The notes beneath the pieces are model-generated. The model ran no database searches. It worked only from the letters and a program-made list of their open reading frames with translations, and was not told where the DNA came from. Shown here one piece after another: positions 9,608-62,368 of a DNA stretch of 64,000 bases (positions are counted from its first letter, which is position 1; every line of letters starts with the position of its first letter). The stretch spans positions 106,329,127-106,393,126 of the forward strand of contig NC_057717.1 in NCBI RefSeq assembly GCF_004010195.1. Reading direction: 5' to 3'. Source of the DNA: Chiloscyllium plagiosum. Lineage: Eukaryota. The position numbers were made by a program, and so were the translations under genes.

Positions 9608-9877
9608 TGTACACTGTGACATACTCTTTCACATCCTTTAGCTGAGGATCCAGACATTTCACAGAACATGCTAGTGTTAAATCCCACTTCTGGACACTTG
9701 GGAAATAGTCATTGTACCAAGTTCTGCCCTTTGTTCTAATGAAATTTACTCCTGGTTTATGTTCCACATTCATTGTTGGTTTTGGACATGTTGTGCTGCA
9801 GTTCATCTCGATGGCACCTCCAAATTCCACGGCTGGGGGGTTTACATCGATTGAAACTTCAAATCCAGTTACAGTGG
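9608..9877 (-). CDS. Gene A exon: ICAM-type N-terminal Ig domain D1 (xTVTGFEVSIDVNPPAVEFGGAIEMNCSTTCPKP...W...LACSVKC...VTVY)
   Basis: Acceptor ttttcttggcag|CC, donor A|gtaagt, 270 nt, phase 1-1. Two C-x3-C pairs are diagnostic of ICAM/VCAM/MAdCAM D1; NCSTTC matches ICAM-2. Confidence 0.85.
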
Positions 9878-10131
9878 CTGCCAAGAAAACAAACCACAGT
9901 AAATACAAACAGACAGAATCCACAAGGCAACATATTGCATGTAACTCACTGACATAATAGTACATTTGAGGACAAAGTTTTTTGAATGCATACTTTAGGT
10001 AGAAGCAGATGATCACTTACTGAGGAGAGGAAGAAGTTAGTTAAACATGAGAGGAACTACAAAGGAATTAGAGAGAGAAATATGGGACAGAAGTTTTCTA
10101 GTGTGACATTTCATGATATAAAGCGACTAAT

Positions 10132-10348
10132 GGGCGGCACGGTGGCACAGTGGTTAGCACTGCTGCCTCACAGCGCCAGAGATCCGGGTTCANNNNNNNN
10201 NNNNNNNNNNNNNNNNNNNNNNNNNNNNNNNNNNNNNNNNNNNTAAGGGGTAAATGTAGGGGTATGGGTGGGTTTCGCTTCGGCGGGTCGGTGTGGACTT
10301 GTTGGGCCGAAGGGCCTGTTTCCACACTGTAATCTAATCTAATCTAAA
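10132..10348 (+). mobile_element. HE1-type tRNA-derived SINE (gapped)
   Basis: A box TGGCACAGTGG, B box GGGTTCA.., (TAATC)n tail. Confidence 0.88.
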
Positions 10349-10403
10349 CTTCAGGGCTGTCTCAATAAGCATGGTTTTCAGAACCATCAGAATGAATGGT
10401 TAC

Positions 10404-10458
10404 CTTTTACCCAGTACTAACTTAATAAATACAGGAGCTGCCACAGAGACATGCCCAT
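10404..10458 (-). pseudogene. Gene A leader (signal-peptide) exon with in-frame stop: MGMSLWQLLYLLS*YWVK
   Basis: ATG at 10458 in gacATGG context, hydrophobic core, phase-1 donor AAG|gtaacc that joins D1 as ...VK-A-TVTG/FEV; TAG at 10417-10419. Confidence 0.65.
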
Positions 10459-10999
10459 GTCCAGCGCAAGAAATGTCCTTAAAGTTTTTAAACACTTGGA
10501 AGTTAACTTTTTAATCCAGGGAACAATTTGTTTTTAAGCAGTTCCTTTAACACAGGTACTCACTTTGGATCCAGAAAGCCAGCACTGAAGGGATTATGTT
10601 GCTGTACATGCTGCTAAGAAACATCAATTGCTCAATTTGACACCAAACCCAGATAGTTTCAGATACAAGTGTATCAGTGAGACCGTAAGTGATGATTTCA
10701 ACATGTCCAAAACAAGTTTATTTGGCAGTTGAATGATTGTGTGCTGCATTTTAAATAGTAACGGTTTTATGTTATCTGTAAGTAGCACCCTTTAGTCCCT
10801 CAATGTGTGCTATACTGCACCGCCCAAAAACTGTAAGGAAAACTGAATATGAAAACAAAATGATTACAGTAAAAATGAATAGTCTCCTGATATGTCTTTC
10901 AACATTAAAAATGTTAATTTTCAAGGTTTGAAAGGCTTTAAGTACATTTCGACATTTTAGAAGGCTCCTCATATGAAGCCACATGGTTAGAGCTTACAA

Positions 11000-12058
11000 T
11001 AGGCCGAAAAGGGTGGGGTTGGAAAAGTACAGTTGTCAGGCAGCATCTGAGGAGCAGGAGAGTCGACGTTTCAGGCTTAACAGGGGAGGGGAAAGGGGAC
11101 TGAGAGATAAATATGAGTGGGTGGTAGGGTTGGGGGGGATGGTAGCTAGGAAGACGATGGGTATATGCAGGTGGGGAGGTGATGGTGATAGCTTGGAGTG
11201 GAGGGTGGAGTGGATTGGTGAGAAGGAAGATGGACAGATAGGACAGGTCAACAAGGCAGTGACGAGTTGGATGGTTGGATCTCGGTTGAGGTGGTGGGAG
11301 GGGAGATGAGGAAACTGGTGCAATTGATGTTGATGCCGTGTGATCAGAAGGTCCCAAGACAGAAGATGAAGCATTCTTCCTCCAGGCATTGGGCGGCTAG
11401 GGTTTGGCAGTGGAGGAGGCCCAGAACTTGGGAGAGGAGAGTTGAAGCAATTGGCCACAGGTCAGTGGGGTTGTTTGGTATGTGTCCCAGAGATGTTCTC
11501 TGAAACATTCTACGAGTTGGTATCCTGTCTCCCCAATGTAGAGGAGACCGCATCGAGAGCAACAGACACAGTAGATCAGGTGTTTGGATGTGCAGGAAAA
11601 TCTGTCTGATGTGGAAGGATCTTTTGGGGCCTTGGTTGGAAGTGAGGAAGGAAGTGTGAGCGCAGGGTTTACACTTCTTGCGATGGCAAGGGAAGGTACC
11701 GAGAATGGAGGGTGGGTTGGTGGGGGTCATGGACCTAACGAGGGAGTTGCAGAGAGAATGATCTCTGCGGAATGCTGATAGGGCTGGGGAGGGAAATGTA
11801 TCTCTGGTAGTGGGGTCTGACAGATGGTGGTGGAAATGGTGGAGGATGATGCGCTGTATCCAGAGATTAGTGGATTGGAAGGTGAGGACCAAAGGGATTC
11901 TATCCTTGGTGGGGGAGGCCATGAAATGGCATCAGGAATGCCACTGCTAGACATAAGACTCCAGTAAATGAGAGAGACAGTTTATTTCAGGGGATGGCGT
12001 TTGGTGTAGTAACCACTGAAGCTCTGATCTCCAGCATCTGCAGTCCTCACTTTCTCCT
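11000..12058 (-). mobile_element. Penelope-like element 3' part (GIY-YIG endonuclease region) with inverted terminal piece
   Basis: RIPLVLTF...SAFRRDHSL...GTFPCHRKKCKPC, CLEEECFIFCLGT; typical of the PLE linker and GIY-YIG domain. Confidence 0.85.
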
Positions 12059-12225
12059 ACATGACACTGACCCAGCTAGCTCAGATTTGGCTCATAGAGT
12101 GAACAGAACCCCTAACAGTCAGGACTCCCTGATTGGACCAGGTTAACAGCCTCAGTCAGGGAACTTATATTCTATAAGATCCACTCGACTGACACCGTTC
12201 AGATCACTACAAATAATAATTGAAG
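12059..12225 (-). mobile_element. Gypsy LTR fragment
   Basis: ccctgattggaccag...tcagggaact similar to the LTR at 53345-53815. Confidence 0.55.
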
Positions 12226-12264
12226 TTGAAGTTGAGGAATCTTTTGGAAACTGGCTCCCCACAG

Positions 12265-12710
12265 TTAGAGTCATACAGCATGGAAATAGACCGTTCAGTC
12301 CAGCCAGTCCATGCCAAACATAATCCCAAACTAAACTAGTCCTGTCTGCCTGTTCCTGGCCCATATCTGTCCAAGTCTTTCCTATTCATGTACTCATCCA
12401 AATGTCTTTTAAATGTTGTAATTGTATGCACATCCACCACTTCCTCAGGAAGTTCATTCCACACGCAAACCACTCTCTGTGTAAAAAAGATTCCTCCATC
12501 TTTTTCTAAATGCCTCATCTCACCTTACAAATATGTCCCCTAGTCTTGAAATTCCCCATCCTAGAGTTAAGCCAACTACCATTAACTCCGTCTATCGCCC
12601 TCATTATTTTATGTATTTCAATGTATCTCCTATGCTCCAGTGAAAAGAACTCCCAGCCTATCTAGCCTTTCTTTATAACTCAAACCATCCATACCTGACA
12701 ACATGTTCAA
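12265..12710 (-). mobile_element. CR1 3' fragment
   Basis: FFTQRVV..WNELP motif plus CR1 3' UTR. Confidence 0.8.
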
Positions 12711-14699
12711 AGGTCCTGCTTGTGGATAGTTCTCTGACTTGCTGGCAATGATGAAAATCTGGCAGCAGGTCTCTGTCCTATATTCCCTTTATTTTTGTTT
12801 CCAGATTTTGGGCAATATAGCAGTGGAAAATCCAGTTCACAGTGCTACAGCTATCAACTACATCAGAATACAGATAATCTTCTGCATTAAAAAAGTTGAT
12901 TTTGTTGGGATTACATTTCCATCTCACTGTATTATTTAGGTAGTTTTGTAGTTATGTAGTTCTACGTTCTTAGTGTAAAGTGTGATGAAATTATCAGAAA
13001 CAAGCTATAAGTGTTTCGGCATTCTGCTTCTAGCAGAGGGCACCATCTTGTTTTTTGACAATGTTGAAGCTACAAATAGAAGTGCCAAGGGAACTGGTAT
13101 GTGCCGGTACAGTTACAACATTGAAAAGGCAGGTACATGAATAGGAAAAGTTTAAAAGGATATGGGCCAGACACAGGCAAGTGGGACTAGTTCAGTTTGA
13201 GAAACTTGGTTGTCATTGGATAAATTGGACAATTCCTGAAGTGCCAGTGCCCAAAACATTCACTCTCTTGCTTCTCGGATACTACTTGACCTGCTGTGCT
13301 TTTTCCAGCACCACGTTTTTCGACTCTACTTATTTTGTAGACCCACTCTTTGACAGGAAGCCCGAGAAGTTTTGGAGGAGTGATCCGAGAGGAAATGAGA
13401 GGAATGGTGGGCAGGGGAAATAACTGGGCAAAAGGCCAACATTTCAGGATCTCACAGGAAGGTCAACTTTTGCAATTAAGTTTTCCAACCTTAAAGGTGG
13501 ATTGACCTCCCTGACTACAGGGGTCAAGAGGCTTATCTGCATGTATTTCCATTTCATTAAAGCAATGGAATTAAATCCTCAGAATCAAATGCTTGCTCCT
13601 AATTAAGTTCTACCCAATTGAGAAATCCATGTCTTCAGGTACCTAACTGCATATAAGCGACATGCACCCTGGTGAGACTGACTTCTTCCATAACTTTGGA
13701 GTAACATGCTTGCTACTTACAGCTTAAAGTTAAGGTTAGATTATGTTGTGTTGCAAGATCTCTAAGTGGAGCAAAAACAGTATAGAGGAAGAAGGTGGCT
13801 GTAGCTGTGGAGGGGGGGGAAGTAAAGTAGCAAAGGAGAGGGAAAGTCAATGAGGCATTGTTTGGATGTAGAGAGAAAGGAAGATATGTTTATATCCTGT
13901 TAAATTAAGAAATATTTACAGTAGTCTGGATTATATAACACCAAATGATCACTATGCCACCCATGTATATTGAATGTGTCTTTTTCTTTCTTAGCCAACC
14001 ACTGTGCCTTGATGCAGCCCTGATGTCCACAGCTGAAGTGGACCATGTAGATAAATGTGTGGGAATGTGGAGAAGTAAGAAATGAGGGCAATTGTGTCCC
14101 ACATACCTGTCTGCTGCTGCTCTTTCTCCTTGTATATGTGGGTGCAGTCCTTGATTGCTGAACTACATGGTCCTATCCTGCCTGGTGCTCAGCAGGTGCC
14201 TGGTCTTGCACCAAACTTTCTGATAAAGGTTTTGGTGAAGCATGTTTTGATCAAACAGACTGAAGCATCCATGCCAACCAAGGGAGATGCTTGAGTTGGC
14301 TTTGAACTCTGTACCTGAGGAACCATACCAGGGCCTGGTTACTGTACCTAGATTGAATAAGAAATATGTTACTTCAAACGTGTTGCAATCTGGTAACTCA
14401 ATAAGGCTCCTTTGACAGCACTTTGCAAATCCACAACCTCTACCAACTATAAGAACAAGGGTAGCAGACACATGGGAATGCCACCATCAGTAAGTTCCCT
14501 TCAAACTCACATCCCATACAGACTTGGAAATATATATTAGTTCCTTCATCATTACTGTGCATCCAGATGAGCACACCCATTCTGATGCTGCCCTGCTCAC
14601 TGCTGGACAGAATCTGGATATTTTGGAAAAGGGGAATATGGCACTACAATTTTCCAACAGGGACCTGGAGGTCCTTATTGGCACAGTAATGCAAAGGAC

Positions 14700-25800: not shown

Positions 25801-27944
25801 CTATGCCAATTGGCACGTGGCTCAGGCAGTAATCCGGAGATTATGACCTTTGAGGACCTGTACTTCAATTTCCTTCCTAGTGCTCGATAATCCCCAAACA
25901 GGTCCTCCATTCTAGCTTTGCCTATGTTGTTAGTCCCAAAGTGGACTACAACAACTGGATCCTCCCCCTCCCCCTCCAATATCCTTTCAAGCTGGTCGGA
26001 GATGTCCCGCACCCTGGCACCGGGCAGACAACACACCATGCGAGACTCCCGATCCGGCTTGCATAGGATACTATCTGTCCCCCTAATTATAGAATCCCCT
26101 ATAACAACTACTTGTCTTTTTGCTCCCCCCTCTTGAATGGCCTTCTGCACCATGGTGCCGTGGTCAGCTGGCTCATCCTGTCCAGAGCCCTTTTTGTCAT
26201 TCATATAGGGAGCAAGAATCTCATACCTGTGGAACAAGGTCAAGGGCTGAGGCTCCTGAACTCAGGTTCCCCCTACCTGCCTCACTTACTGTTACATTCT
26301 GATGTTCCTGATCACTAACTGAATGTGAATTACTTAATCTCCCAGGTGTGACTGCCTCCTGAAACAAAGCGTCCAAGTAACTCTCCCCCTCCCGGATGTG
26401 CCGCAGTGTTTGAAGCTCAGATTCCAGATCATCAACTCTGATCCGGAGCTCTTCCAGCAACCACCACTTGCTGCAGATGTGGTCACTGCCGTTCACAATG
26501 GGATCAGCCAGCTCCCACATCATACAGCAACAGCACATCACCTGCCCAGCCATCTCTGCTTAGTTAATTACTTTATTACTTTGTANNNNNNNNNNNNNNN
26601 NNNNNNNNNNNNNNNNNNNNNNNNNNNNNNNNNNNNNNNNNNNNNNNNNNNNNNNNNNNNNNNNNNNNNNNNNNNNNNNNNNNNNNNNNNNNNNNNNNNN
26701 NNNNNNNNNNNNNNNNNNNNNNNNNNNNNNNNNNNNNNNNNNNNNNNNNNNNNNNNNNNNNNNNNNNNNNNNNNNNNNNNNNNNNNNNNNNNNNNNNNNN
26801 NNNNNNNNNNNNNNNNNNNNGCTTGCAAAGGATACTATCTGTCCCCCTAATTATAGAATCCCCTATAACAACTACTTGTCTTTTTGCTCCCACCTCTTGA
26901 ATGGCCTTCTGCACCATGGTGCCGTGATCAGCTGGCTCATCCTGTCCAGAGCCCTTTTTGTCATTCATATAGGGAGCAAGAATCTCATACCTGTGGAACA
27001 AGGTCAAGGGCTGAGGCTCCTGAACTCAGGTTCCCCCTACCTGCCTCACTTACTGTTACACTCTGATGTTCCTGATCACTAACAATGTGAATTACTGAAT
27101 CTCCCAGGTGTGACTGACTCCTGAAACAAAGCGTCCAGGTAACTCTCCCCCTCCCGGATGTGCCGCAGTGTTTGAAGCTCAGATTCCAGATCATCAACTC
27201 TGATCCGGAACTCTTCCAGCAACCAACACTTGCTGCAGATGTGGTCACTGCCATTCACAATGGGATCAGCCAGCTCCCACATCATACAGCTACAGCACAT
27301 CACCTGCCCAGCCATCTCTGCTTAGTTAATTACTTTATTACTTTGAATAGGTTTGAGTTAAAATACTTTCTGATACCTCTTTCTATAGTCTTTTTCTAAA
27401 AAACCAATTAATAGATAAACCATAAAAAAGTAAATTTTTAACCATTCACCGATAAAGAAATAGAAAATCCTTACCTTAACAAACCAGAGTCCTATTTTTG
27501 AAGTGGGGGGGTTGGGAGACACAACACGTGTAGTGTCTCGGGTTTAGCCACTGCCCAGATATATTACCAGCAGTCCCCTGGTCGTCGCTCCCGCTCTTCC
27601 TACTTATTAACTAGGTTAGAGGAGGAGGGCGGGTGGGCGACACTACAGTAGTAGAGTCTCGAGTTTAGCCGCCTTGCTGATATATATGGTCACTGCTTAC
27701 CTTCCCGGCTACCCCTCTGGTCCCCGTCACTTCCTCCGCTGCTCCTGCTCCTTCTGTGAAAAACACCGCTGCCCGCTACCAGTAAGTAATTTTAATAAAA
27801 ACTGCCTTACCTTATCTGCAGTCTTCCGAGTTCGTCCTACCTCTGCTGCTGCTCGCACTTAAAATGGCCGTTGGCGTCGAAGGGTGAGTATTTATACTTA
27901 CTGCTTAGCTTCCCGGCTACCCCTCTGGTACCCGTCACTTCCAG
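22839..27944 (-). mobile_element. Full-length CR1 LINE nested in an older CR1; several gaps
   Basis: 5' UTR with internal repeats, ORF1 Zn-finger + VIGDS esterase, ORF2 endonuclease and RT motifs, 3' tail near 22839. Confidence 0.92.
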
Positions 27945-28725: not shown

Positions 28726-28727
28726 GA

Positions 28728-31460: not shown

Positions 31461-32249
31461 TTTACCCAACATGCCTGTCCTTGCTGACTTCCAGCTTCCA
31501 CTGAAGCATTTTCAAATTATCAGCTGCGATTTCAGTTCCCTCCTTGACTTCATCTGTTCCACTTTTTACACTTTTTGTATCTATCCCCAACCCTGCAAAT
31601 TTATCAGAATTCTCTGCTGCTCCAACTCTGGTCCTTGCATATCCCTGATTTTAACCATATATGCCATGTCTTGAAACGGGGCTAAACCGAAGCATTTGAG
31701 TGTGTAACAGTAAAATGGAGGAAGGGGCCTTCCACATATAACTACCATCCAGTGAATCAATATCTGGGGTATAGCCACCACTAGCCTTATCAGGACTGGG
31801 TAAATCATTCAAAATGATACGCTGCTATTGAGCAGATGCAGCATCATGATTCAGACCTCAGTTTTTATTTGTGTGCTTACAATCTGAAAGGGGACTGAAA
31901 TCGACAGCCTTAAAGAAGCAAGCATGCTAGAAAGTGACACAAAGTTTGATCAACATTTATAGGTTTTAAGAAAGTCTCAAAGAGACTGGGAGGACTTCCA
32001 GAGGTCAGGGCCTAGGGCTGTTGAAGGCAAAGTTGCTAATGGTCTTGGGGAAATGAAAATCAAAACACACAACATACCTGAATTGGAGTAGTATATAATT
32101 CTTGGAAGTTTACAGGGCGGAGGGAGTTTATGGAGATACAGAGAGGAAAGGCATGGAGGCATTTAAACATGATGTGAATTTTAAAATTGAGATTTCACAT
32201 CTCGTCTTGATTTCATACATTTGGAAAACTATAGATTACAAATACAATA

Positions 32250-32255
32250 TTTATT
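32250..32255 (-). promoter_or_regulatory. Candidate polyadenylation signal of gene B
   Basis: AATAAA on the minus strand ~390 nt past the stop codon, in unique AT-rich sequence. Confidence 0.4.
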
Positions 32256-32642
32256 CTATTAAAGCAAACAGTCACAATAGGTAAATTATTTTACAGAATA
32301 AACAAATCTTATATCTAGTCTTCGTGTCAATTAGTGGGAAAGAAAGTTGTTTTCATAAAACTTTGATGATATCGATGCTGAATCTAGTTACCAGAGCTCA
32401 GGTGACAATCCAGAGTTTGAAAAAATGCAAGAAAATGATCAATACAACATTTCAAAAGCAATCTAAAATGTTGAGAAATGTGAGGAAAATGTTGTCATTA
32501 CAATTATTACAGTAATTACTGCAAACAATTTTAATATTGCAATGAGCTGCACTTGTTGGATACAATATCGATTACAGGATCATCGGAATTTCTCTTCAAA
32601 ACATATATCATACTAGTTTGTAATTATTGTTGTGCTACCAAG

Positions 32643-32839
32643 CTATGGATGAAGTTTCTCCAAAGGAACATCTTCCTGATGATCCTTTCCGTTGGGGACT
32701 TGTGTATTGTTGTTGGGCTTTGCTTTGTCTAATTTATACTGTCCTCTTTTATGGGCACTGCATTTCCAGTACAAGGCCATCACTGCAAATACCATCAATA
32801 CTGCTATTCCTGTAGTTATTAGTATTATCCATCTTAAAC
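32643..32839 (-). CDS. Gene B terminal exon: transmembrane helix and cytoplasmic tail (GLRWIILITTGIAVLMVFAVMALYWKCSAHKRGQYKLDKAKP...EKLHP*)
   Basis: Acceptor ttttcatag|GT in phase 1, ~22-residue hydrophobic run, basic juxtamembrane segment with GxYxL as in ICAM/VCAM tails, stop at 32643-32645. Confidence 0.85.
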
Positions 32840-33485
32840 CTATGAAAACATAGAAAGAAAAGATCATCAACAGTCCAGGGAAGTATATTTATTGCAAAAT
32901 GCCTGAATATTTCTAAAATCTAGTGTCCCCATGTGCTTAATCAGCTTTTTCATGGCTGTTTTCCTGCTTGTATTTTTCACCTTCTTTCATTCTTCCCACA
33001 TCACACACCATTCCTTGGCAGTCTGCTCTCAACTCACTATCTATTCTTGTTTATGTTCTGCGGGAATTACACACTGGTAAGTAAATTTAATATAATGCTC
33101 CAAACATACCGCTGACAAGCTTTCTTTTCAGCTGGTTCCAGAATTTCCAGAGTTTATAATTCTTCTCTATCTCTTACATTACTGAAAATTACATATCCTG
33201 TCTTTCTTTCAATTTTCAACCCTAAACATCCATTAGCATTTTCCCCAAGGCACTGATTAAGCTGCTGTGTTTGCATACTTCTTGCTTGTGTTTGTTTCCT
33301 GTTACCCCACCTCATGAGGAGAAATGAAGCTTAGAGATGTGTGTTTCACTCACTGATCTGCTCCAAATCTCTGCTTCATGGAGTGTGTAATGATTAAAAT
33401 CATGGCCAAGTGAATGTCATTGACAATGAGACTCTTCATTGTCATTGTTAACCTTGGCCAATCAGGGAGCTCTGGCTAACAAATG

Positions 33486-34568
33486 TTAACATAGGATTAT
33501 TTAATCCCTCCCCTCCCTTTCACTGTTTGATCACACAGCATTGCCCTTTGATGTGAAGGGCACTGCTTGTCATTGGCAACTTGGGTGTTTCCTTTCTTCC
33601 TGGTGGTGGAAACTGAATAAAGATTCGTGCACCTTGTGTCTTTCACTGTGTCTCACATTTGCACACACACACAACATGGGTGCTGGGGAAAAATAAGCAC
33701 TACTGCAGTTAGGCGGTAGTGTGGGGGTTAAAAAAAAAGAGCAGGAATATAAATAAAAGAAAAAAATTAACATAGGATTATCAATCCCTGCCCTCCCCTT
33801 CCCTGTTTGAACACACAGCATTGCCCTTTGATGTGAAGGGCACTGCTTGTCACTGGCCACTCGGGTGTTTTCTTTGTTCCTAGTGGTGGAAATTTGAATA
33901 AAGATTTGTGCACCTTGTGTCTTTCACTGTGTCTCACACCTGCACACACACACAACCTGGGTGCTGGGGAAAAAATAAGCACAACCGCAGTTAGGTGGTA
34001 GTGTAGGGGTATAAAAAAAGAATGAAAAGATAAAAAAGTTTAAAAAAATAAACAAGGGTGCCAGACATCCTGTTCACTCTGAGAAGAAACAAAATAACCA
34101 GGAGACAGTGTCAGAGATTCTGTTCACTCTGAGAGCTGGCTCTGAGGGAGCTGGATCAAAAAAAATTAACATAGGATTATTTAATCCCTGCCCTCCCCTT
34201 CACTGCTTGATCACACATCATTGCCCTCTGAGAAGGGCACTGCTTGTCACTGGCCACTCGGGTGTTTCCTTTCTTCCTGGTGGTGGAATATAAACAAAGA
34301 TTTACACACTTGTTTTTCACGGTGTCCGACACCTGCATACACACAACATAGATGCTGAGGAAAAATAAGTACTACAGCTGTCAGATGGTACTATGGGGGG
34401 AGGGGGAAAAAAGGTGAAAAAAGAGAGAAGAACATGAATGTCAGACATGCTGTTCACTCTGAGATTTAGAAAAAAAATTAACTTAGGATTCACACAAACA
34501 TGGGTGCTAAGAAATATAAGCACTATTGCAGAATTGCAATAGTGTAAGGGGAGAAAAGAAAAAAAAAT
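33486..34568 (+). repeat. Cluster of four copies of an unclassified ~270-bp hairpin-rich, A-tailed repeat inside the Gypsy 5' LTR
   Basis: Copies start ttaaca/cttaggatt at ~33486, 33767, 34166 and 34478 (last internally deleted); each ends in a hairpin, a G-run and an A-rich tail. Confidence 0.8.
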
Positions 34569-35410
34569 TATAAACAGGAGATTTCGAATCTCAATTCAGG
34601 TGACTGATTCTGAGCTAGCTGGTCACAGTGAGTGTACTAAAAAGGAAAAGAAAAAAGAACAGTATAAACATCGCATTCAGAATCTCCTCAGTTCAGGGAC
34701 TGACTCTGAGCTGGCTGATCACAGCCAGTGTAGTGTGCACACATAAATAATGGGTGACTTGGTGACAGGATTCCAGCCTCTGTGCAATTATATCAGTGGA
34801 GACAAGAGAAAACAATACATGCCTGAATATAATTTGTTTAAAACAGTCGTCTTTCAGTTGGGGTAAGCATTTTATTTTGAAAGCTTGATTCATTCAATTT
34901 TGTCATCAAAGATTAGGCCCAGTATTTGGCTGTTTGAGAACCAGGGGCATCCATATCGAGATTTTTGATGAGGTTAAGACAACTGGCAGAGACATTGGTT
35001 AACCCTGAATGATATGCTGAGAGACCATTTGGTATGTGGCATTCATGAGGTAACCCTGCAAAGTACCTACTAACTGAAGTCCAACTGGACTTCAAACAGG
35101 CACTACAACTGGCTTTGTCATTAGAAAATGCAGCATGGGAGTTAGAGGGCATCCCAACGAAAGTGAACACTTGTCCAACAGAGGTTGGGGAAGAGCACTT
35201 GAGTGTAGGCAATCACAGTGACTCAAGCAGGGCATGAGAGCAGAAGGACCCTTGGTCAGTCCACAGCAAAGCTGAGCCTTGGCCAGATGGCTGAAAAGTT
35301 ATTCAAGATCTGGACTGGCAAGCCATTGTAGTTGTTGCTGGTATGTGGGCTTGAGACAGCAAAGGAGCCCTATGAGACCTGAGTAAGAAAACTCAGACCA
35401 GTATCCAGGA

Positions 35411-35872
35411 GAGTTGAGACTGTGTTGCTGGGAAAGCACAGCAGGTCAGGCAGCAGCCAAGGAGCAGGAGAATCGACGTTTCGGGCATAAGCCCTTTGTC
35501 AGGAATGAGGCTTGTGGGCCAGGACTGAGAGATTAATGGGAGGGGGGTGGGGGAGGGTAAGGTAGCTGAGAAAGCGATAGTCGGATGAAGGTGAGGGAGA
35601 AGGTGATAACTCAGAGATGGGAGTGATAGACAGGCCCGGAGGGTGGTGCTGAGTTGGAAGCTTGGGACTGGGATAATGTGGGAGGAGGGGAAATGAGGAA
35701 GCTGTTGAAATCCACATTTATCCAATGTGGTTGCAGGGTCCCAAGGCAGAATATGAGGCGTTCCTCCTCCAGGCATTGGGTGGTAACGGTTTGGTAGTGG
35801 AGGATGTGCAGGACCTGTATGTCCTTGACGGAGTTTGAGGGGAAATTGAAGTGTTCAGGCATGGGTTGGTGG
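35411..35872 (-). mobile_element. Penelope 3' fragment nested in Gypsy, with mutated hammerhead
   Basis: CLEEERLIFCLGTLQP; cattcCTGACAAagggcttatgcccGAAACGTC on the minus strand. Confidence 0.85.
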
Positions 35873-38800
35873 GTGCACACTCTGGAAAGTCCACCTTTTT
35901 GTGGTTTGGAACAGTTAAATTGTACCACAACATCCAAATCAGAATCAATTAAAATAAATGTCTGGTTAAATGGTCACCCGGTTCTCATTGAGGTTGATGT
36001 GTCAGTGGTTACAGAACCAATCTTTAACAAGATTTCCTCTGGGCCTAGGTTTGCGCAAGACCTCGGCCAGATTGAGAACAGTCACCAGGGAACTGTTACA
36101 CACTAAGGGTACGACATTGGTTCTGGTCCCCTATAAGAAGTAATCACTGATTGTTGGAAGAAGCTCAATCCTGTTGGAGCAGAATTGGTTGAGAAAGATC
36201 GACCTAGATTGGCTCAACATTTTGCAATTAGAAAATAGCTGCCTGAATGAAGTTCTAATGAAATAGCCAGGAGTTTTTCAGAAAGAGGTTGGGACTATCA
36301 AAGGAGTCAAGGCCATTTTATATGTTGACCAGGAAGCAATTCCACAGTTTTGCAAGGCCTGCCCAGTGCTATTTGCCTTACGGGCAAAAGAAGAGGTAGA
36401 AATCAGGAGGCTGGAGAGCGAGGGAATCATCAAATCAATGCAGTTTGTGGAATAGGCAACAGTGGTTGTATAGATTGTGAAGTTTGACGGCTCCGTTCGC
36501 CTTTGTGAGGATTTGAAGAAAAGCGTAAAACACTTCTCACAGCTGGATATATACCCAATATTTTGCATAGAGGTTTTGTACATAAAATAGGTAGGGAGGG
36601 GCCATGCCACCTTCAGTTATGACTAAATGAGGAGTCCCAGAAGTATGCCACAATTAATTCACATGGGAGTTTGTACCAATAAACAAGACTACCATTTTAG
36701 ATAATATCAGCCTTAACCATTTTCAGTGGACCATGGAGAACATATTACAAGGACTACCCTGGGTTTCCTTTTATCTGGATGACTTGCCAATAACCAGGAT
36801 GACCAATAAAGAGCACTTGGAGAATTTGGACGTAGTGCCTAAACATTTCTCCCGGGCAGGTTTATGCATTAGAAGGAAAAAATGAGAGTTCCATGTGCTC
36901 CAAGTGACCTATTTGGGCTACAGAGTCAACAAATCTGGGTTACACTCATTGGAAGATAAAGTGAGAGTGATCAGATGTGCCCTGGTTCCCACGCCTCTAC
37001 CAGAGCTTAGGTACTTCCTTGGGTTAGTGAATTATTATGGAAAATTCAAATGTAACCTGGCTTCCATCGTTGCACCTTTACAACTGTTGAAAAAGGGTCA
37101 GCCTTGGAAATGGTCACACAGCCAAAAAGTAGCCTTTGGGGAAGTGAAAAAGCAGCTATTGTCATCTAAGGTGTTAACCCACTACAATTCAAAGCGAGAG
37201 GTAGTGCTGACATGCGATGCCTCCCCATATGGTACCTGGGTAGTGTTGGCTCACGAGTGGCCCAACGGAGAGGAATATCTGATAGTGTTTGCTCGCCAGA
37301 CTTTGGCTGATGCTGAACACAAATACATCCATATAGAGAAGGAAGGTATGGCAGTCATTTTTGGTGTGAGGAAGTTCCACCTTTACGACATATATTTGTC
37401 ATCGTGAAGGGCCACAAACCCTGATAGAGCTACTTAAAGAAGGCAAGGCCATGTCACCCATAGCTTCTGGTCAAATTCAACAGTGGGTCCTTTTTCTCAG
37501 TGGGTACCATTACTACTTGGAATACCGTCCAAGAGGCCAAGTGACAAATGTGCATGCTTTCAGGCACCTCCCACTGGCAGATACTCCTCTGGTGGTGCTT
37601 CCCCTGGAAGAGTCCATTCTGGTTTTAAACTTTCTGGGCACCCTTCTCGTCACCATTGACAATATCCGATTCTGGACACAGAAAGATCCCATCCTTGCAA
37701 AACTAAAACAGCTCTTGGTAATGGGAAACAAAAGGGCCATCTCAACCAGGATTGAAATCTTTCTGGACTTGGTGAGACCAGATCAGCGTAGAGAATGACA
37801 TATTACTATGGGAGCTAGAGTGATTGTCCCAAGTAAAGATCACGGCCAGATACTGGCTGAACCCCACCTGGGTCATCCAGGGATTTCCAAAATGAAGATG
37901 TTGGCAAGGAGTTATGTCAGGTGGCCAACATAGCTGTGTTGGTGGGGCAGTACCCAGAGTCCCACAAGGCCAATTCAAAGTGGTTAGGCATGCAGAGAAT
38001 TCATTTGGTAAATTCAGGGATGATGAGTGAAAAGCTGTGAGCTTTGTTTGTGATACATGGACTCCTAGTTAAGGACAATGTGACATCATTTACCAGCAGG
38101 AATTTGAGTATTTCCTAAAGCCAAATGGCATTTGGCCTGTTCATACAGCTGCATACCATCCATCGTCCAGTGTTCTGGAGGAAAGAGCAGTCCAAATGTT
38201 GAAGGCAGGTTTAAAGAAACAGCCGATAGCTTCACTTGATACCAACTTGTCCTGGTTACTGTTCGATTATGGGACCATCCCTCAGGCAACACCAGGGTTG
38301 GGTCCAGCAGAGTTGCTGATACGGAGAAGATTCCACACAAGGTTAAAGCTGATATTCCCAGACCTGGAGGTCAGGCTGAAACAGCAGTAAGAATGTCAAT
38401 GCCTGCCACATGCCTCCTCTAAGCAAATTTATTTCAGGTGAAGACATTTGGTGCTGGAACCACGGAAATGGCCTGACATGGGTATGGGACAAGGTCAATG
38501 CAATGTCAGGTCCTATGACAAACAATGTTTGGGTAGGTGAGGGGGTCCTGAACAAATGTGGGTCACCTGAAAGCTGCCAGTATGCAAACGGTGCAGGTGC
38601 AAAATATACCTGGCCCCTCAGAACAGCCAGAAAAGAGTGAGAAATTGTGAGTTGCTCCCCCTTGTCTAATATCGAGGAAACCTCAAAGTCTGAGGTGGAT
38701 TCAGTCTCAATACTGTTACTGCTGGAAGAAACTCTCCCAGATGCTGCAGACATAGGAGGCAGACTATGGTGTGGCACACACACCCATTTCCATTCAGAAG

Positions 38801-39352
38801 AACCAGACCTAGGGCAAAAACATCCCAGGAGAAGCTGCAAGAAAAAGGACAGGTACATCCTTCCTGGAATTGTTTGATTGGAACCATGGCTAGATGGATC
38901 TCATTGACAATGAGATTCTTGATTTGCATAGTTTAACAAGCCTCGTCAGGGAACCCTGGCTGACAGACATAAACAGGGAATTCAGAAGGGCTCCTCAATC
39001 TAAGGACTGACTTTGAGCCGACTAGTCACAGCCCAGGGGACATGTAAATAAGGGGAAAGTTGGTGACAGGGCCTCACTGCAATTATTTTAGAGTGGTAGT
39101 GTGTAGATTCACAGCCACAACTGCCCTCCACCCCAGAGTTATTACTCGGGCAGGTGGGACAAACATACAACAGGAGAATGGTGCTTCTATGCACAAAGAG
39201 AAACACGTGCAAGAGATTCTCATACTGAACCACCTGTACCCAATGTACCAGAGGCCAGTTACAGAGCAGCATTGTTAGAGGCAGGCAACAGTTTATCCAT
39301 TTGTCCCATTGTCAGGAAGGGTGGAGTTAAACAGGAACCCAAACTAATAATA

Positions 39353-39685
39353 CAGGTGCACAATCCTTTCTCTGAAATGCTCAGTACAGCAGGTTTTCGG
39401 AATTCAGAATGTTTTGAATTTTGGAATAAGTGACAGTTCTATGGTGAAATTTTAAAAAATTTTACTGGAGGAGCATGACTCACTCAGTAAAACGGGACTT
39501 GAGAGAGAATTGAGGCCTGCCGGTGCTGGACCACGGCCCCGCATGTTGCGTCGAGTGGGTGTTGACTGGGTTAATTGTTTGCATGCCAAACAACATTGTT
39601 AATGAGAAAAAAACTTTACAAAAAATGCCTTTGGACTTCGGCGCTTTTCGGATTTCGTGATTTTGGATAAAGGGTTGGCTACCTG
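39353..39685. mobile_element. Tc1/mariner-pogo (Tigger-like) MITE
   Basis: Imperfect TIRs CAGGT...aatcctttctctgaaat / atttt.ggataaagggtt..ACCTG flanked by TA on both sides. Confidence 0.75.
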
Positions 39686-39708
39686 TAATAGTAATTTTAG
39701 ATTCTGAC

Positions 39709-39996
39709 CTTTGACCCTGATGTCCACTTCCTTCTTATCAATTCCATATTGATTGGCAGCTCTACCTTTATAAATTCCTTGGTGCTCTGAGGTTATGTAC
39801 GGAATGTGCAGAAATCCAGAGGGACCAATCTCAATGTTGCTGCCATTACTGGGGTTTACCCACTCTAATGTAGGTGAGGGTCTTCCATTGGACTTACAGC
39901 TTAATGTAATTTCATCACCTTCAGCAGTTTCTACTGGAACGCCTGACATGGTTTTGCTATTTACCGATATGGTCATGATTGTGTCTTGTGGTTTAT
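39709..39996 (-). CDS. Gene B exon: membrane-proximal Ig domain D6 (xKPQDT...LSCKSNGRPSP...W...HQGIYKGRAANQYG...IRVK)
   Basis: Acceptor cttttccag|AT, donor G|gtcaga, 288 nt, open frame. F-strand motif is G-I-Y-K-G (GGT) instead of Y-x-C (TGT). Confidence 0.85.
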
Positions 39997-40330
39997 CTGG
40001 AAAAGAGAAGAAAAAGATGAAAATAGGCAGGCAGACAGGATCACTGATACAGCTCTCCAACACGGCTTCAATTAACAGGATGTCTAAACCTCACCACATA
40101 TTGTGCTGTCATCTATCTTCCAACAATCATTTCAGAACAGGTGAATCTCTGCAGTCGTGTTACAGCCTGGGTCGTACTTACAGTCATCTGTTATTATGAC
40201 GGCTGTTCACAGTGAAATGCAGTCATTGTGTAAATACTAATTCAGGTTTACAGCTAGTGGGTTTCATAGTCTAAGGGTTCACACTGCTCAGAATATTCAA
40301 AGATTCAATTTCATGTAATCTGTTGCTCAT

Positions 40331-40576
40331 ACAAAATAGTTGCATTTAGAGATGAGGTTTTAGATCAGTGCTCATTTTTGACCGTGCACACATACAGTCC
40401 CCCATGCTGCATTTGAACAGATGGGATAAAGAGTATTTCTCTGCTTTCCATTTTCCCATCTTTGATCCAGACCCTCTGGGGATCTGGGTTCCCTTGCCCA
40501 TGACATGTTAAATTCTGTGATTCCCCTTCAATCCAGTTTTCTTGAGCTTTAAAGATCACTGCTTTTGCTGGTGCAT
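40331..40576 (-). pseudogene. Gene B exon: Ig domain D5, disabled (xAPAKAVI...LTCHGQGNPDP...W...GLYVCTVKNEH*SKTSSLNATIL)
   Basis: Acceptor ctttacag|AT intact. TGA at 40365-40367 falls where the N-x-x-G motif predicts GGA. The phase-1 donor reads T|atgagc rather than gt. Confidence 0.75.
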
Positions 40577-41579
40577 CTGTAAAGTTCATTCCAATCAAAA
40601 ATTAAATCAGTATACTACACGACTCAAAGTTCAAATATTCTTCAAATTCTTTCTGGTGCTCTCCAGATTTTAATATTTAGAATAAAATTGGTTTCTATTT
40701 TAAAACCCAGTGTCAAACAGTACCAAACAGTACTGAATCAAACAGTACCAGGCAAAGTAAAGCACAGGATAAAAGGTGGAATAACCTGCTCTGAATTCTG
40801 TGAAAAATGTAACATTCTGAGTGCTGCTTTTCAGAAATTTCCAATTAATTTCGTTTTCTGTTGGGATCCTGAGTAACTGAGGAAAGAGGTTATAAATACA
40901 TTTCAGAGACTGGGTTACCTTCATACAGCAATTGTAATAGGGTTTTTAAATACTGGGAGATAGACTGATACAGAGGTAATATAAAGACCAACAAAGGGAA
41001 AGTATTCCGAGACTGTTCCGGAGAATTTTCTCCAGCAGTAAGTGTCCAGACCGATAAGAAAGGAGGAACTGCTCGACCTGGTCATGGGAATGGGCCAAAT
41101 GAAGCAAATGTCAGTGGGAGAACACGGAGGGCTCAGTGATCATCGTATCATCAGTACAATGGCAGAAAATGACATTGGTCAATCCAGAGTAAGAATATTC
41201 AACTGGGGGAGAGTGGCCTTCAGTAGGGCAAGAACACAGCAGGATCAAGTGAACGACAACCAAAGGTTCATGGGAAAATCAATGGCTGAACAAAGAGCTG
41301 TCTTCAGAGAAGAAATGGTCTGGGCACAGTCAAAGTAAATTCCCACAAATGGGAAAAGGGAGACAAACAAATGCAGAGCTCCCTTGATGTCAAAGGAGAT
41401 GGATATTCAGAAAAGGAAGTGTGTTTATGACATGTGTCAGGTAGTAATTGCAGTTAAGAACCAAGTACAATACAGAAGGTTCAGAAGTGATGTTAAAAAG
41501 TAAAGTGAGAAACAGATTGTGTGGACTGACATTGAACATAAAGAAAATCTGGATATCACTGACAGGTACATCTAAAATA

Positions 41580-48267: not shown

Positions 48268-48319
<52 letters not shown>

Positions 48320-48355: not shown

Positions 48356-49017
48356 GTGAGATGTAGTCAAGGGCACTCACCTCCATAGTTACACTTTAGG
48401 AAGGGAGTGATAGCCTGGTGGATAATGTAAAAGAGAGTCATTAAAATGGGACAAGGGATGAGTGGCTTCCCTTATGTGGAAAGAATGGAAAAGTTGGGAT
48501 TCTGCCAATCAGGCAGTGAGGGTCAAGAGAAGTTCTGATAGTCATGTTCAAGATAATGAACCAATTGTAGACAAATAAAGAGGAGTTTTTAGTGGCAAAA
48601 GGTTTGATAATCATGAGACACAGATTTAAGGTGATTAGAAAAGGAACAAATGTGATGTGATTGTTTTTTTAAAGAAAGCAGTTGATTGTTTTCTAGCATG
48701 AATAGTGGAAGCAGATGCACTAGTGTCTTTCACAGGAGAATTGGAAAAATATTTGAAGGGGAAACACATACTCCCATGATTGCACTCTGTGGCACAATGC
48801 ACCGGGGTAATAATGGACAGTGTCCTCACATGTCCTGACCCCAGGATCTGTATCCCTTTGGTCTCAGTGACAAAGGAGCTGCTGCAAGGCAGTCCCTGTG
48901 TGAGGAGACCAATTCAAATTGGTTCGGACTAAGAGGAAAGTTGGGATGAGGATTTCATTGTCTCCATTTTGAAAAAAAATCCCACTGACGTTTTGTGAGG
49001 AAAGTAATGCTACTTAC

Positions 49018-49305
49018 ACAGGACATGGAGGGTTTCAATCTGTTGTTTTATAACAGGGCTTGTCATTGACTGATCTTGAAGTTTCAGTTCAGCTTCACAG
49101 ATATACTGCTGTCCATCCAGCTTAACTTGAGCTTCTACTGTATGAGAGATAGTGAGCCCAGTACTGCTTGATCCATTCACTAATGTGTCATTTCCTTTCT
49201 TCAGTCTGAGTTCAAGATCCCCTGAGACTTTTAACACAAGGCATGTAATATTAACCAGATTTCCTTCCTGGCTGGTTGGTACTTGGATTTCAGGGGAAGA
49301 GAAAG
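49018..49305 (-). CDS. Gene B exon: Ig domain D4 (xFSSPEIQVPTSQEGNLVNITC...DGQQYICEAEL...LHVL)
   Basis: Acceptor tattatttttag|CT, donor T|gtaagt, 288 nt, open frame, both cysteines present. Confidence 0.85.
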
Positions 49306-50073
49306 CTAAAAATAATAGAAAGATACTGTTAGAAACATTGTTGTATCTAGTAGTCCCTCAGTGTGAGGTTAATAACAATGAAACAAAGGCAGATTGCATT
49401 TCGTGCTCTTGCTCATCCTCTGCTTCATTGCTGTATCAGGGAGATGTACAAAGCCCTACATCATCTTTCCATGTTCCTTCAGTGTCTGCAGTATCTTAGT
49501 CAACATTCATTCCTGACCCAAACTCACCAAAAATGTATTCTGCTCGTTTCTGTTTGTAGAATCCTGAAATCTGTATTTATTTTAATGCAGATTTATTTAT
49601 TACCGCCTGTTTCTTCCACACGGTATATTCCTGATTGGTGTATGTTTTTGCACCCCTGCAGTTTTTAGGGTACATTGGTTGTTTAAACATTTAAACATTC
49701 TCTTGTGATCCTGGAATACTAAGTGTGAGTAACACTCACCTATGAGCAGCGCATACAATGTCAATCACATTATCTCAGGATCTCAGAATATCTCGAGTCA
49801 TTAAGACTTTCTCAGAATGCTTTTCATTGACAGAGGGTCATATAGAATATATGGCACAGAAACAGACCATTCCAACTAATTAGCCAATGTTTATGCTTTA
49901 CTCAACCAAGTGTCTGAGTATACAAACATTTCCACAAGCTTCCCAATTTGTTACTCAATGAAAAGGATTTTATTACTGAAAGTGGTGGAAATGCTGACAT
50001 GTTGTATTGTTGACAGTGATGAACTATCAGAATGTTGTCTGATTTTAAACTCCCCCACAACCAGAATTCTTAC

Positions 50074-50367
50074 CATACACCTCAATGAAAGCACTATTAT
50101 TCTTTGAGGGAATTGATGGATATTTCTCAAAATCGGCCATACAGACGACTTCCAACAGACCAGATTCCTGTGGTGTCCATGCTGCTGTTATTCGGACAAT
50201 GTTGGAATTTGGCCTTGTGGTATCTGAGTTCAGTTCCACACCATCCTGAAACCATCTTACTCTCATCTTCTCAGTAGGATAGACACTTGAGACCTCACAT
50301 GTTAATGTGACCTCTTGCTTCACTTCTTTGGGTCTTTTGTCCAGGATTCTAGGCTGATCCATGAAAG
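50074..50367 (-). CDS. Gene B exon: Ig domain D3 (xFMDQPRIL...LTCEVSSVYP...VRW...VVCMADF...IEVY), non-canonical acceptor
   Basis: Open Ig frame with both cysteines and the tryptophan; donor G|gtaaga. The expected acceptor reads ttataC|ct instead of AG, and an in-frame TGA lies just upstream. Confidence 0.75.
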
Positions 50368-50609
50368 GTATAATTCAGACAAGAAATTCACTTCATTTTA
50401 ATTTGCTGCAGTGTGTTTCAGTTTATAATGGACAGAGTGGGAAACTGGCCAGTGTAGGTATTGGACAATACACCACCCCAGGAATATATCACATTCACTC
50501 ATAGTCATAAAACTGGAGTCATCTGCAGGAGGCCATAGTGCATTTTGAGAGGGAACTGGCAATGCCAATCACGGTGTGCGATTGGTAAATTTGTCTAAGT
50601 ATTTTTGAC

Positions 50610-50950
50610 AATTCATTCATAGGATAAGGGCATTACAAGCTGGACAGCATTTATTACCCATCCCTAATTGCTCAGAGGGCAGTTCAGAATTAACCATGTT
50701 GCTCTAGGTCTGGAGTCACATCTGGGCCAGACAAGGAAAGGATGGCAGTTTCCTTCCCTGAAGGACATTAGTGAACCAGATCAGTTTGTACACCAATCAG
50801 CAATGGATTCATGGTCATCGTTGGACTGTTAATTCCAGATTTTGTTTTTGTTAGATTCAGATTCCACTATGGCAGGATTCAAACCCAGGTCATGGGAACA
50901 TTATCTAGATCTCTGGATTAAGGGTCCAGGGATAATATGTTTAGGCCAGC
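50610..50950 (-). mobile_element. tRNA-derived SINE (family of 14700-15035)
   Basis: Reverse-complement similarity to 14700-15035. Confidence 0.65.
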
Positions 50951-51134
50951 ACCTCAGTTCAAAACCACAAAACAGCTCATCTATTTTATTTTTAAATTAA
51001 TTCTTGCTACTTTTCAACTATTAAGGCCTTTGACCATCGTGTATGTCAGTTTCGTGTATGTCAGTCACTCTGAGCAGTACAGGCTGATGCACTCCTGATT
51101 TACCTTTGCTTTGATCTTTACTTGCATCTGTCTA

Positions 51135-52720
51135 GAATATCCTTCTTAAAGGGGAGGATGAGCAGCTAGAGGCCCTGGTACACATCCATACCAGTGACAT
51201 AGCTCGGAAAAGGGATGAGGACCTGAAAAGTGAATATAGGGAGTTAGTTTGGAAGCTTAAAGGCAGGATGAGCAGAGTAGTAATCTCAGGTTTGTTACTA
51301 GTGCCACGGGCTAGTGAGGCTAGAAATAGAGAGTAAGTGCAGATGAACACGTGCCTGCAGAGCTGATGTCAGAGGGGGGGCTTCAGATATGTGGGTCATT
51401 GAGACACGTTCTGGGGAAGGTGGGATCTGTACAAGGAGGACGGGTTGCACCTGAACTGAAGGGGCATCAGTATCTTGGGCAGCAGGTTTGCTAGAGCTCT
51501 TGGGGAGGGCTTAACTAGATTGGCAGAAGGATGACAACTAGATCTATGGATCAGAGATGAGGTAGCTGGTGAACAGGCAAACACAGCATGCCGAGAGTCT
51601 GTGAGGAAGGATAAACAGTTGATAGGTCAAAGTTTCAGTCAGTGTGATGGGTTGACATGTGTCAATTTTAACGCAAGAAGTGTCAGGAATAAGGATAATG
51701 AACTTAGACCATGGATTTGTACTTGGAGCTACAATGTGTAGCCATTATGGAGATTTGGATATCACATGGGCAGAAATGGTGTTGGATGTTCCACGATTTA
51801 AAATGTTTCAAAAGGAAATAGAAAGAGGTAAAAGAGGTGGGGGAGTGACATTGCTAAGCAGGGATAGTATCACAGCTGCAGAAAGGGAGGGCGTTGAGGA
51901 GGGTTTGTCTACAGAGTCAGTATGAGTGGATGTCAGAAACAGGAAAGGAGCAGACACTTTATTGGGAAGTTTCTAGATAACCCCCCCCCCCCCTCCCCCA
52001 ACAGCAGCAGAAACACAGAGGAGCAGATTGGGAGGCAGATTTTGGAAGGTGCAGAAACAACAGTTGTTGTCATGGGTGACTTCAACTTCCCTAATTTTGA
52101 TTGGAACCTCCTTGGTTCAAATGGTTTGGATGGAGCAGACTTTGACAGGTGTGTCCAGGAAGGATTCCTGACTCAATATGTAGATAGGCTGATTAGAGGG
52201 GTGCTTGGCAATGAATCAGGTCAGGTGTCGGATCACTTAGTGGGAGAGCATTTCGGTGACAGTCATCACAACTCCCTGACCTTTACTGTACTCATGAAGA
52301 GGGATAGGAGCAGGGTTTTTGAGAAAGTATTTAGTTGGAGGAGGGTGAATTAAAATGCTATTAGGCAGGAACTGGTGTGCCGAAATTGGGAACAGATATT
52401 ACAGGGAAATGCATGAGAGAAATGTAGCGGTTGTGGAGGGAGCACTTGCTGCAAGTTCTGGATTGGTTTGTCCCACTGAGGCAAGGAAGGGATGGTAGGT
52501 TGAAGGAACCTTGGATGACAAAGGATGTGGAACATTAAATCAACAGGAAGAAGGAAGCGTACTTAAGGTTGAGGAGGCAAGGATCAATCAGACAGGGCTT
52601 TAGAGGTTTACAAGGTAGCCAGGAAGGAACTGAAGGTTGGACTTAGGAGATCTAGAAGGGGGCATGAAAAACCTTTAGCAGGTAGGATTAAGGATAACAC
52701 TAAGGCATTCTACACTTACT
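51135..52720 (+). mobile_element. CR1 fragment (ORF1 esterase end + endonuclease)
   Basis: DGLHLN-type and MGDFNFP motifs. Confidence 0.85.
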
Positions 52721-52903
52721 TATATTATTAAGACTCAGCTTGGCAAAAAAAGAAAGTTATTCAAAATACTGTAGGCCACCACTATCAAACTATGGTTTGC
52801 ACATGCTCTGGCTGACTTAAAGCAAACATTTACATTTACTGGATATTTGCACCATAATACAAGATAAGTTTTTTTTGTAATATCTTGAGCAATTGGAACT
52901 CAC

Positions 52904-53218
52904 CGTAAGTTTGCAGTGTGACAGAAGAGTTTGTGATTGACTTTGTGGTATTAGAGCCCAAGTCCACTTCAGCCAAGCAGGTGTACTCCTGTCCATCATC
53001 TGATCGACTCGCAACGAAATTGAAGACATTTCTCAACCTTTTATCTTCATCCGGAAGACCTAGTTCACCTGTGGAATCTCTCTGGACAATCTCACTCCCT
53101 CTCAGCCATGTGAGAATGAGTTTGTTGTTTGCATAGACTCTTGGGCCAATGCACTCCAGACGATATGTTCTGTTAATCTCCAGTACTTCAGGAAGTACTG
53201 TAATGCTTATCTCTCGAT
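52904..53218 (-). CDS. Gene B exon: ICAM D2-like Ig domain (xREISITVLPEVLEINRTYRLEC...LTWLRG...GQEYTCLAEVDL...VTLQTY)
   Basis: Acceptor ctcctttaacag|AT, donor G|gtgagt, 315 nt, open frame. C...W-L-R-G...Y-T-C-x-A-E-V-D-L resembles ICAM-1 D2 (LLRG...FSCRTELDL). Confidence 0.85.
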
Positions 53219-62035: not shown

Positions 62036-62050
62036 TCACTTTGCCGTTAC

Positions 62051-62354: not shown

Positions 62355-62368
62355 GAAGAGAGTCGAGA

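Follow-up and report, generated by a model that had tools for sequence, protein, structure and literature searches.

A likely recent pseudogene and a neighbour undamaged in its first two exons in a probable ICAM-family cluster of the shark Chiloscyllium plagiosum, with inner exons probably homogenised among old paralogs

Two immunoglobulin (Ig)-superfamily genes, here called B and A, lie on the same strand in a 64,000-nucleotide stretch of the genome of the shark Chiloscyllium plagiosum (assembly GCF_004010195.1, contig NC_057717.1, positions 106,329,127 to 106,393,126; hereafter the window), and they raise the question of whether such genes form a young cluster that expands and decays within one lineage, as an initial annotation had proposed, or whether they are remnants and members of something older. 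The reading that is considered likely to be correct is as follows: gene B, of which the window has the 3′ part, bears four lesions and is likely a recent pseudogene, gene A is undamaged in its first two exons, those that the window contains, and both are likely members of an old cluster of cartilaginous fishes, made up of about five paralog types, the inner exons of which have likely been homogenised by recurrent exchange among neighbours. Birth and death of genes would be at most a secondary process in such a cluster.

Six-frame translation and a reading of the splice sites revealed eight coding exons, all on the minus strand, six of gene B and two of gene A, and these belong to two separate ICAM-family genes, both real. 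The distance from the stop codon of B to the ATG of A is 22,019 bp, and the initial annotation was thus accurate in placing two same-strand genes about 22 kb apart. Gene B enters the window with a D2 exon (52904..53218) of the ICAM D2 type, which has good splice sites on both sides and finds its best solved match in D2 of ICAM-2 (E = 1.6e-06). It continues with D3 (50074..50367, Pfam ICAM1_3_5_D2), D4 (49018..49305, splice sites good), D5 (40331..40576), the I-set domain D6 (39709..39996) and a transmembrane (TM)/cytoplasmic exon (32643..32839) that is open to its stop codon, and a candidate AATAAA polyadenylation signal can be read from the sequence at 32250..32255. Gene A is represented by an intact leader exon (10564..10624), with its ATG at 10624 and a phase-1 GTGAGT donor, which resembles the leaders of the homologs P0018, P0005 and P0029, and by an intact D1 exon (9608..9877) encoding an ICAM N-terminal domain. 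All B exons are of phase 1-1, and the arrangement of one Ig domain per phase-1 exon, followed by a TM segment and a short tail, is the plan of the ICAM family. Because a six-frame search with homolog-built profiles found one copy each of D1 to D6 in the window and no more, neither gene is complete in it: D1 of B is beyond base 64000 or missing, and D2 of A is beyond base 1, in a gap, or missing. The search of the window gave no further Ig, leader or tail exons, and no other host gene was recognised within it. A stray match at 22190-22101 (E = 3e-04), which contains a stop, was dismissed as chance, and a signal-peptide-like translation just before D1 of A is an intron pyrimidine tract, the true leader being that at 10624-10564.

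The initial annotation had assigned the genes to a broad ICAM/VCAM/MAdCAM class on the basis of a double C-x3-C in D1, an LRG...C-x-x-E-L-D-L motif in D2 and a GxYxL tail. The first is found in D1 of A and the last in the GQYKL tail of B, while the D2 motif of B reads LRG...CLAEVDL, with V in place of L; the matches of D1, D2 and tail are far beyond chance, and D2 of B finds 53 chondrichthyan proteins at 64-96% identity. D1 of A matches Pfam ICAM_N (PF03921; E = 4.8e-08, 33 bits against a cut-off of 21), and the cysteines C26 and C30 of its two C-x3-C motifs are invariant across 32 rows. Its predicted model, with a predicted local distance difference test score (pLDDT) of 89.6, retrieves ICAM-3, -1, -5, -5, -1 and -2 at Foldseek ranks 1-6. 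Glu38 closes the predicted strand 34-38 and aligns with the LETS glutamate of ICAM-3 and ICAM-5, though not in the ICAM-2 alignment; by pattern, 61 of 62 D1 rows have a glutamate 8-10 residues past the first C-x3-C (one N-terminally cut row was matched at the second motif). We take Glu38 to be the counterpart of the acidic residue at the end of D1 strand C, with a role comparable to that of E34 in ICAM-1 and E37 in ICAM-3.

The phylogeny that the initial annotation had suggested narrows the class further. In a tree of D1 and D2 together (44 rows), the 18 chondrichthyan rows all fall into a single clade (100/99), which joins the bony-vertebrate ICAMs (98/91) in an ICAM clade of 37 rows, and gar VCAM-1b, lizard MAdCAM-1 and unnamed VCAM-like rows fall outside, with the qualification that the root is imperfect, the outgroup not being one side of a branch and MAdCAM-1 being a long branch. 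The ICAM part of the earlier assignment therefore stands and the VCAM-1/MAdCAM-1 part does not, and the family, as it appears from these sequences, is ICAM proper. Chondrichthyan copies did not group with any single mammalian ICAM (1, 2, 3 or 5) on D1 and D2; an older orthology could have been erased or hidden by homogenisation. Several likely teleost matches, P0077 and P0098 among them, are long proteins, some named hemicentin-1, with several stretches that fit the ICAM D1-D2 profile, and lie inside the ICAM clade.

The domains of an intact six-Ig homolog match, in the same sequence, D1-D4 of ICAM-5 (E = 2e-22) and D1-D5 of ICAM-1 (E = 1.8e-16), and the six-Ig form is thus the ICAM five-domain core with one extra I-set domain. 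Exactly D1 to D6 are present in 10 of 69 shark and ray models, from 7 species, and D1-D2-D3-D4-D6, without D5, in 10 of the 69; P0018 is without D3. The prediction of six Ig domains for B is thereby upheld, whereas the notion that this number is out of the ordinary is not, the first five domains being colinear with D1-D5 of human ICAM-1. By analogy, intact members are predicted to be type-I membrane ligands of I-domain beta-2 integrins (e.g., LFA-1), engaged through the conserved D1 glutamate, and alpha-L is reported in cartilaginous fish (PMC8359198).

Only one of the two genes is damaged. Gene B has four lesions: an AC instead of an AG acceptor before D3 (50369-50368; the exon start is set by the homolog junction AFMDQP), an early TGA in D5 (40367-40365) where homologs have Gly, an AT instead of a GT donor after D5 (40330-40329), and a glycine codon (39766-39764) in place of the second cysteine of D6, which is kept in 87 of 87 homolog domains. 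An alternative reading of the lesions, with a GG acceptor at D3 and a 3-nt deletion at the donor, was ruled out by the homolog junctions, and the boundary between D5 and D6 is also backed by a spliced joint, 39994/40329, in sequencing run X2 (two letters ambiguous). Disabling lesions are thus combined with retained introns, as in an unprocessed pseudogene. Moreover, B carries 7 private changes at conserved columns of D2-D6 where 1.65 are expected (Poisson 0.0016), and 4 where 1.08 are expected (0.024) in D2, D4 and D6, the exons with good splice sites, the expectation being derived from bamboo and epaulette shark models; they include P29A in D2 and N25K and A60V in D4. This excess would favour decay across the whole gene over the loss of two optional exons, and B is likely a recent pseudogene, which taken alone is an ordinary decaying paralog. 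Gene A shows no lesion in its leader and D1 (the frame is open and the GT/AG sites match in phase) and no private change at the conserved columns of D1. The earlier statement that both copies carry lesions consequently applies to B and not to A.

Homologs were found in 12 shark species and several rays, several per species, and 45 of the 69 models, leaving out isoforms and most fused or partial models, were sorted by leader and tail into five types (the tails of P0024, P0043, P0045 and P0054 were dropped). About five paralog types, separable in this manner, recur across shark orders. The type of gene A, marked by an AFWIQ leader, occurs in 9 species of shark, and an RRLAA tail closes 12 of its 13 models; the A-type orthologs P0005, P0018, P0029, P0032, P0038, P0040 and P0066 have a short basic tail with the RRLAA stretch before the TM segment. 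A GxYxL-like motif is absent from A-type tails and present in the other four types, and the A-type tail is possibly a distinct signalling or anchoring type. The tail of B is nearest to that of Stegostoma P0031 (66%), which has an MDFRRKS-type leader; a search with the B tail gave one match among 3 candidates, P0014 of C. plagiosum, which is weak evidence. We infer that B is of the neighbour type with an MDFRRKS-like leader. In Chiloscyllium punctatum, the A type and the MDFRRKS type occupy consecutive loci (chiPu_0018250/chiPu_0018251) on one 367,558-bp scaffold, and the MDFRRKS-type locus has an intact six-Ig model, P0223. The likely orthologs of B are intact both in C. punctatum and in Stegostoma.

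A number of models named hemicentin-like or VCAM1-like (P0001-P0004, P0009, P0011, P0060 and P0210) consist of runs of repeated D1-D2(-D6) units and are probably fusions of neighbouring near-identical genes. To judge by the fused D1-D2 repeat models of Scyliorhinus, Mustelus and Cetorhinus, some lineage-specific duplication has probably occurred besides.

The histories of the individual exons of these genes do not agree with one another. Identities were compared among the 45 classified models, leaving out 4 ray rows, in three ways, given here in order: between paralogs of a single species, between copies of one paralog from separate lineages, and between distinct paralogs from separate lineages. 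For D2 these are 93.6/81.1/80.9% (57 within-species pairs, 1 of them identical), for D3 98.7/76.4/76.4% and for D4 97.8/74.3/74.7%, whereas leaders (26.1/54.8/28.4%) and tails (28.9/52.8/26.6%) behave in the opposite manner. For D1 and D6 the picture is mixed, and D1 of three types groups by lineage. On the D2 tree, lineage labels change 7 times, the minimum (27.8 when shuffled), and paralog labels 29 times (25.5 when shuffled); on quick trees of D2, D3 and D4, lineage changes are at their minimum (7, 6 and 5), a value as low being reached in 0 of 500 shuffles, and paralog type does no better than shuffled labels. A careful D2 tree concurs, with starred lineage clades, and under approximately unbiased (AU) tests monophyly in D2 is rejected both for the 3-Ig type (p = 9.6e-47) and for the type of A (p = 3.8e-83). 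Paralogs are thus closer within than between species in part of the gene, as expected of concerted evolution by gene conversion, read here at the level of the protein. Strong purifying selection cannot explain the pattern of D2, because lineages differ by about 19%.

Gene B itself follows this rule: its D2, D3 and D4 are 96, 94 and 98% identical to P0014, of another paralog type, and 81, 86 and 82% to the likely Stegostoma ortholog. The 3-Ig type is even more telling, as its D2 is 87-100% identical to that of same-species paralogs while D1 reaches 27-46% and D6 42-58%, a pattern that recent whole-gene duplication, as far as these comparisons reach, would be unable to give. Pristis, the one ray with several paralogs in the set, differs from all sharks tested in that its 3-Ig D2 (P0047) is not homogenised, being 62-68% identical to its paralogs P0036, P0042 and P0052 and 75-76% to other rays. 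A read-through peptide past D1 of A (9608-9582, minus strand) exactly matches the C-terminal end of P0081 of C. punctatum, a protein with a leader of the neighbour type, and this hints that exchange of D1 between neighbours runs into the intron.

Based on these comparisons, exon-limited concerted evolution on an old scaffold fits best. Tandem genes on one strand, all exons of which are of phase 1, could exchange sequence by gene conversion or by unequal crossing-over; this exchange would mostly spare the leader and TM/tail exons, so that each gene keeps its identity, and would partly spare D1, leaving three classes. B may have lost constraint because neighbouring paralogs carry a near-identical ectodomain, rendering it dispensable. 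Of the lineage-specific, expanding and decaying cluster initially envisaged, the decay of B thus remains; the presence of the A type in 9 shark species, the intact likely orthologs of B elsewhere and the restriction of within-species likeness to inner exons speak against the rest.

Sequencing reads bear on the state of B in several ways, 4 of the 24 runs listed, none of them labelled as RNA, having been compared over positions 32200-41000. Run X1, a DNA run of uncertain independence from the assembly, covers 40367 at a depth of 7.77; the Gly letter accounts for 3.87 of this, which leaves the stop letter in about half, next to an intact paralog. Run X2, labelled 'DNA?', yields a spliced D4-D5-D6 contig at a depth of 519, the letters of which encode V18, R41, Y49 and G70, the residues of P0014 and not those of B. 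Contigs covering the last exon of B, at depth 18 in X2 and depth 8 in X4, continue without splicing past the TM acceptor as far as 33005, and these are compatible with the presence or the absence of a working B transcript. In run X21, sampled to about 2 in 100, the TM bin drew about 1 read and the D5-D6 joint 2 reads, numbers too small to use. Across the D5-D6 intron (40085-40203), one contig in X1 and one in X2 depart from the window by 11 listed substitutions and one deletion, and a paralog or other haplotype resembles B through this intron. At 32691 and 32705 in the tail exon of B, X2 and X4 differ from the window (one change silent, one Thr>Ala) and X1 is the same as the window.

The exons are surrounded by fragments resembling long interspersed nuclear elements (LINEs), long terminal repeat (LTR) elements and short interspersed nuclear elements (SINEs), and the window has 7 N gaps. 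A direct duplication, 61035-62451 against 62584-64000, 99.8% identical over 1,417 bp and likely an assembly artefact, lies where the D1-D2 intron of B would run. A LINE-like duplicate (26057-26583 against 26821-27345, 97.5%) flanks the N gap 26586-26820 and is likely a scaffolding artefact. Within the last intron of B, 33486-34595 holds several tandem copies of a high-copy element of about 280 bp.

Several explanations compete with homogenisation of inner exons and decay of B. Three of the four lesions fall in D3 and D5, and with all exons of phase 1-1 and the TM/tail exon open, B could be alive as a shortened receptor that skips a dead optional D3 and D5 (D1-D2-D4-(D6)-TM). Such forms have precedents in the homologs that lack D3 (P0018) or D5 (the 10 models above), in C. 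punctatum the likely ortholog has an isoform that includes D5 (P0223) and one that omits it (P0015), and the contigs of X2 and X4 do cover the last exon. This possibility is nevertheless judged unlikely: the cysteine lost from D6 is otherwise universal among the homologs, private changes at conserved columns extend to D2 and D4, and the contigs are unspliced over the TM acceptor, with no D6-TM joint among the joints listed, beyond which there are 224 more. Plain birth and death, in which each lineage has recently duplicated one gene and the copies then decay, would account for the decay of B, for the grouping of D1 of three types by lineage and for the extra copies suggested by fused models with repeated D1-D2 in Scyliorhinus, Mustelus, Cetorhinus and Hemitrygon. 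Recent whole-gene copies would, however, match throughout their length, which those of the 3-Ig type do not, the same leader and tail types turn up in different orders of sharks, and A is without lesion. Birth and death through whole-gene duplication is thus largely refuted, very improbable as the main process and left only as an addition in some lineages.

Two further explanations place the fault in the assembly. The lesions of B might be errors of a gapped short-read assembly that mixed near-identical paralogs, a notion to which the 7 N gaps and the two artefact-like duplications lend some credit, as does the observation that in X1 several positions of D5 and the intron are covered only by contigs with other letters. 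The stop letter in about half of the X1 depth, with the stated doubt about the independence of that run, argues to the contrary, and mixing of intact paralogs would not yield residues found in no homolog; errors of this kind are a far-fetched account of the lesions. Alternatively, A and B might be one gene misordered by the assembly, with the leader and D1 of A belonging before D2 of B, as the initial annotation had itself considered. The window does have exactly one of each D1 to D6, and N gaps lie between B and A. The leader type of A, however, pairs with the RRLAA tail in all but one of its models and never with the tail type of B, both types are consecutive loci in C. punctatum, and B itself is without D1 in the 10.8 kb upstream of its D2, making it unremarkable that A is without D2 in the 9.6 kb after its D1. 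A single misordered gene can be regarded as practically out of the question.

The interpretation as homogenised inner exons with a decaying B has weaknesses of its own, which should be set against it. Of the four lesions, only the D5 stop has been seen in a DNA run, and the TM exon of B is present in contigs of X2 and X4 that are possibly RNA, with no splice joint among those listed. The Poisson test was devised post hoc, includes the stop among the 7 changes and uses comparator models picked as intact, and with all exons of phase 1-1 and homologs without D3 or D5, no single lesion necessarily breaks the frame. The types were assigned by eye from leaders, with some rows assigned by tails and D1, which makes the leader result circular and the tail result partly so, and tails are not strictly paralog-specific, as two bamboo-shark types share near-identical tails (up to 97%). 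The orthology of B rests on the 66% tail match, the next best being 64%, and on gene order. Homogenisation was read at the level of proteins, and with D3 identical in 7 of the 11 pairs from within a species, a single physical exon may underlie more than one model.

A bolder variant, which is doubtful at best, would regard the locus as a modular receptor system, in which about five ancient leader/promoter and TM/tail identities, including the tail of A without a tyrosine motif, are mounted on a single stalk that is copied anew time after time and on three classes of binding domain. Since every exon is of phase 1, a lesion would not have to kill a gene under such an arrangement, and B would survive by exon skipping or toggle between dead and live whenever conversion from an intact neighbour replaced its exons. 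If this were true, stalk length and gene status would vary among individuals.

Should the preferred reading of exon-limited exchange in an old cluster be right, cartilaginous fishes expanded their ICAMs independently of bony vertebrates, and several paralog types were kept across shark orders while the stalk exons were homogenised, so that a family of leukocyte-adhesion genes would offer a clean example of concerted evolution confined to certain exons. It would also explain why public models are frequently fused and misnamed as VCAM1-like or hemicentin-like, and would serve as a warning that short-read expression values for shark ICAM genes are unreliable.

How do these genes compare with known systems? 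Public ICAM-like models of sharks and rays (XP_043550978.1 of C. plagiosum, XP_072420547.1 and GCC19179.1 of C. punctatum, XP_059495907.1 of Stegostoma) are of the same family and exon plan and are without the four lesions of B. D2-D5 of B are 94-98% like XP_043550978.1 and D1 of A is 90% like GCC19179.1; homolog searches with domains of A and B and with the tail of B found no protein identical to either. The public names (ICAM-1/2/3/4/5-like, VCAM1-like, hemicentin-like) do not mirror orthology. Mammalian ICAM-1, -2, -3 and -5 (PDB 1z7z, 1zxq, 1t0p and 4oi9) share with the shark proteins the D1 fold, the two C-x3-C motifs and the glutamate at the end of a strand. The shark form differs from the mammalian ICAMs in having one extra membrane-proximal I-set domain and no one-to-one ortholog among them, and its LETS-like motif reads VEHK/VEYK or IEG. 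VCAM-1 and MAdCAM-1 are integrin ligands of the Ig family with a four-cysteine D1, in which the acidic residue is Asp, in contrast to the Glu of shark D1. No VCAM-1 or MAdCAM-1 chain was among the best 60 of 156 solved-structure matches of the intact six-Ig homolog.

The pattern of exchange has a parallel in another family. A search that did not extend to most subscription literature found no published work on chondrichthyan ICAM clusters or on ICAM gene conversion. The CEACAM family (PMC7042247, PMC2832619) consists of tandem Ig-superfamily genes in which exons are kept alike within species by gene conversion and some members or exons escape, and the concerted evolution of CEACAMs described there resembles the shark ICAM pattern of tandem Ig genes with partial escape. 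Conversion among tandem genes is a known mechanism, and the shark ICAM pattern is only moderately surprising. In paired CEACAM receptors, the converted exon is often the ligand-binding one (PMC2832619); unlike this arrangement, it is D2-D4 that are most homogenised in sharks, and the predicted ligand-binding D1 keeps three classes.

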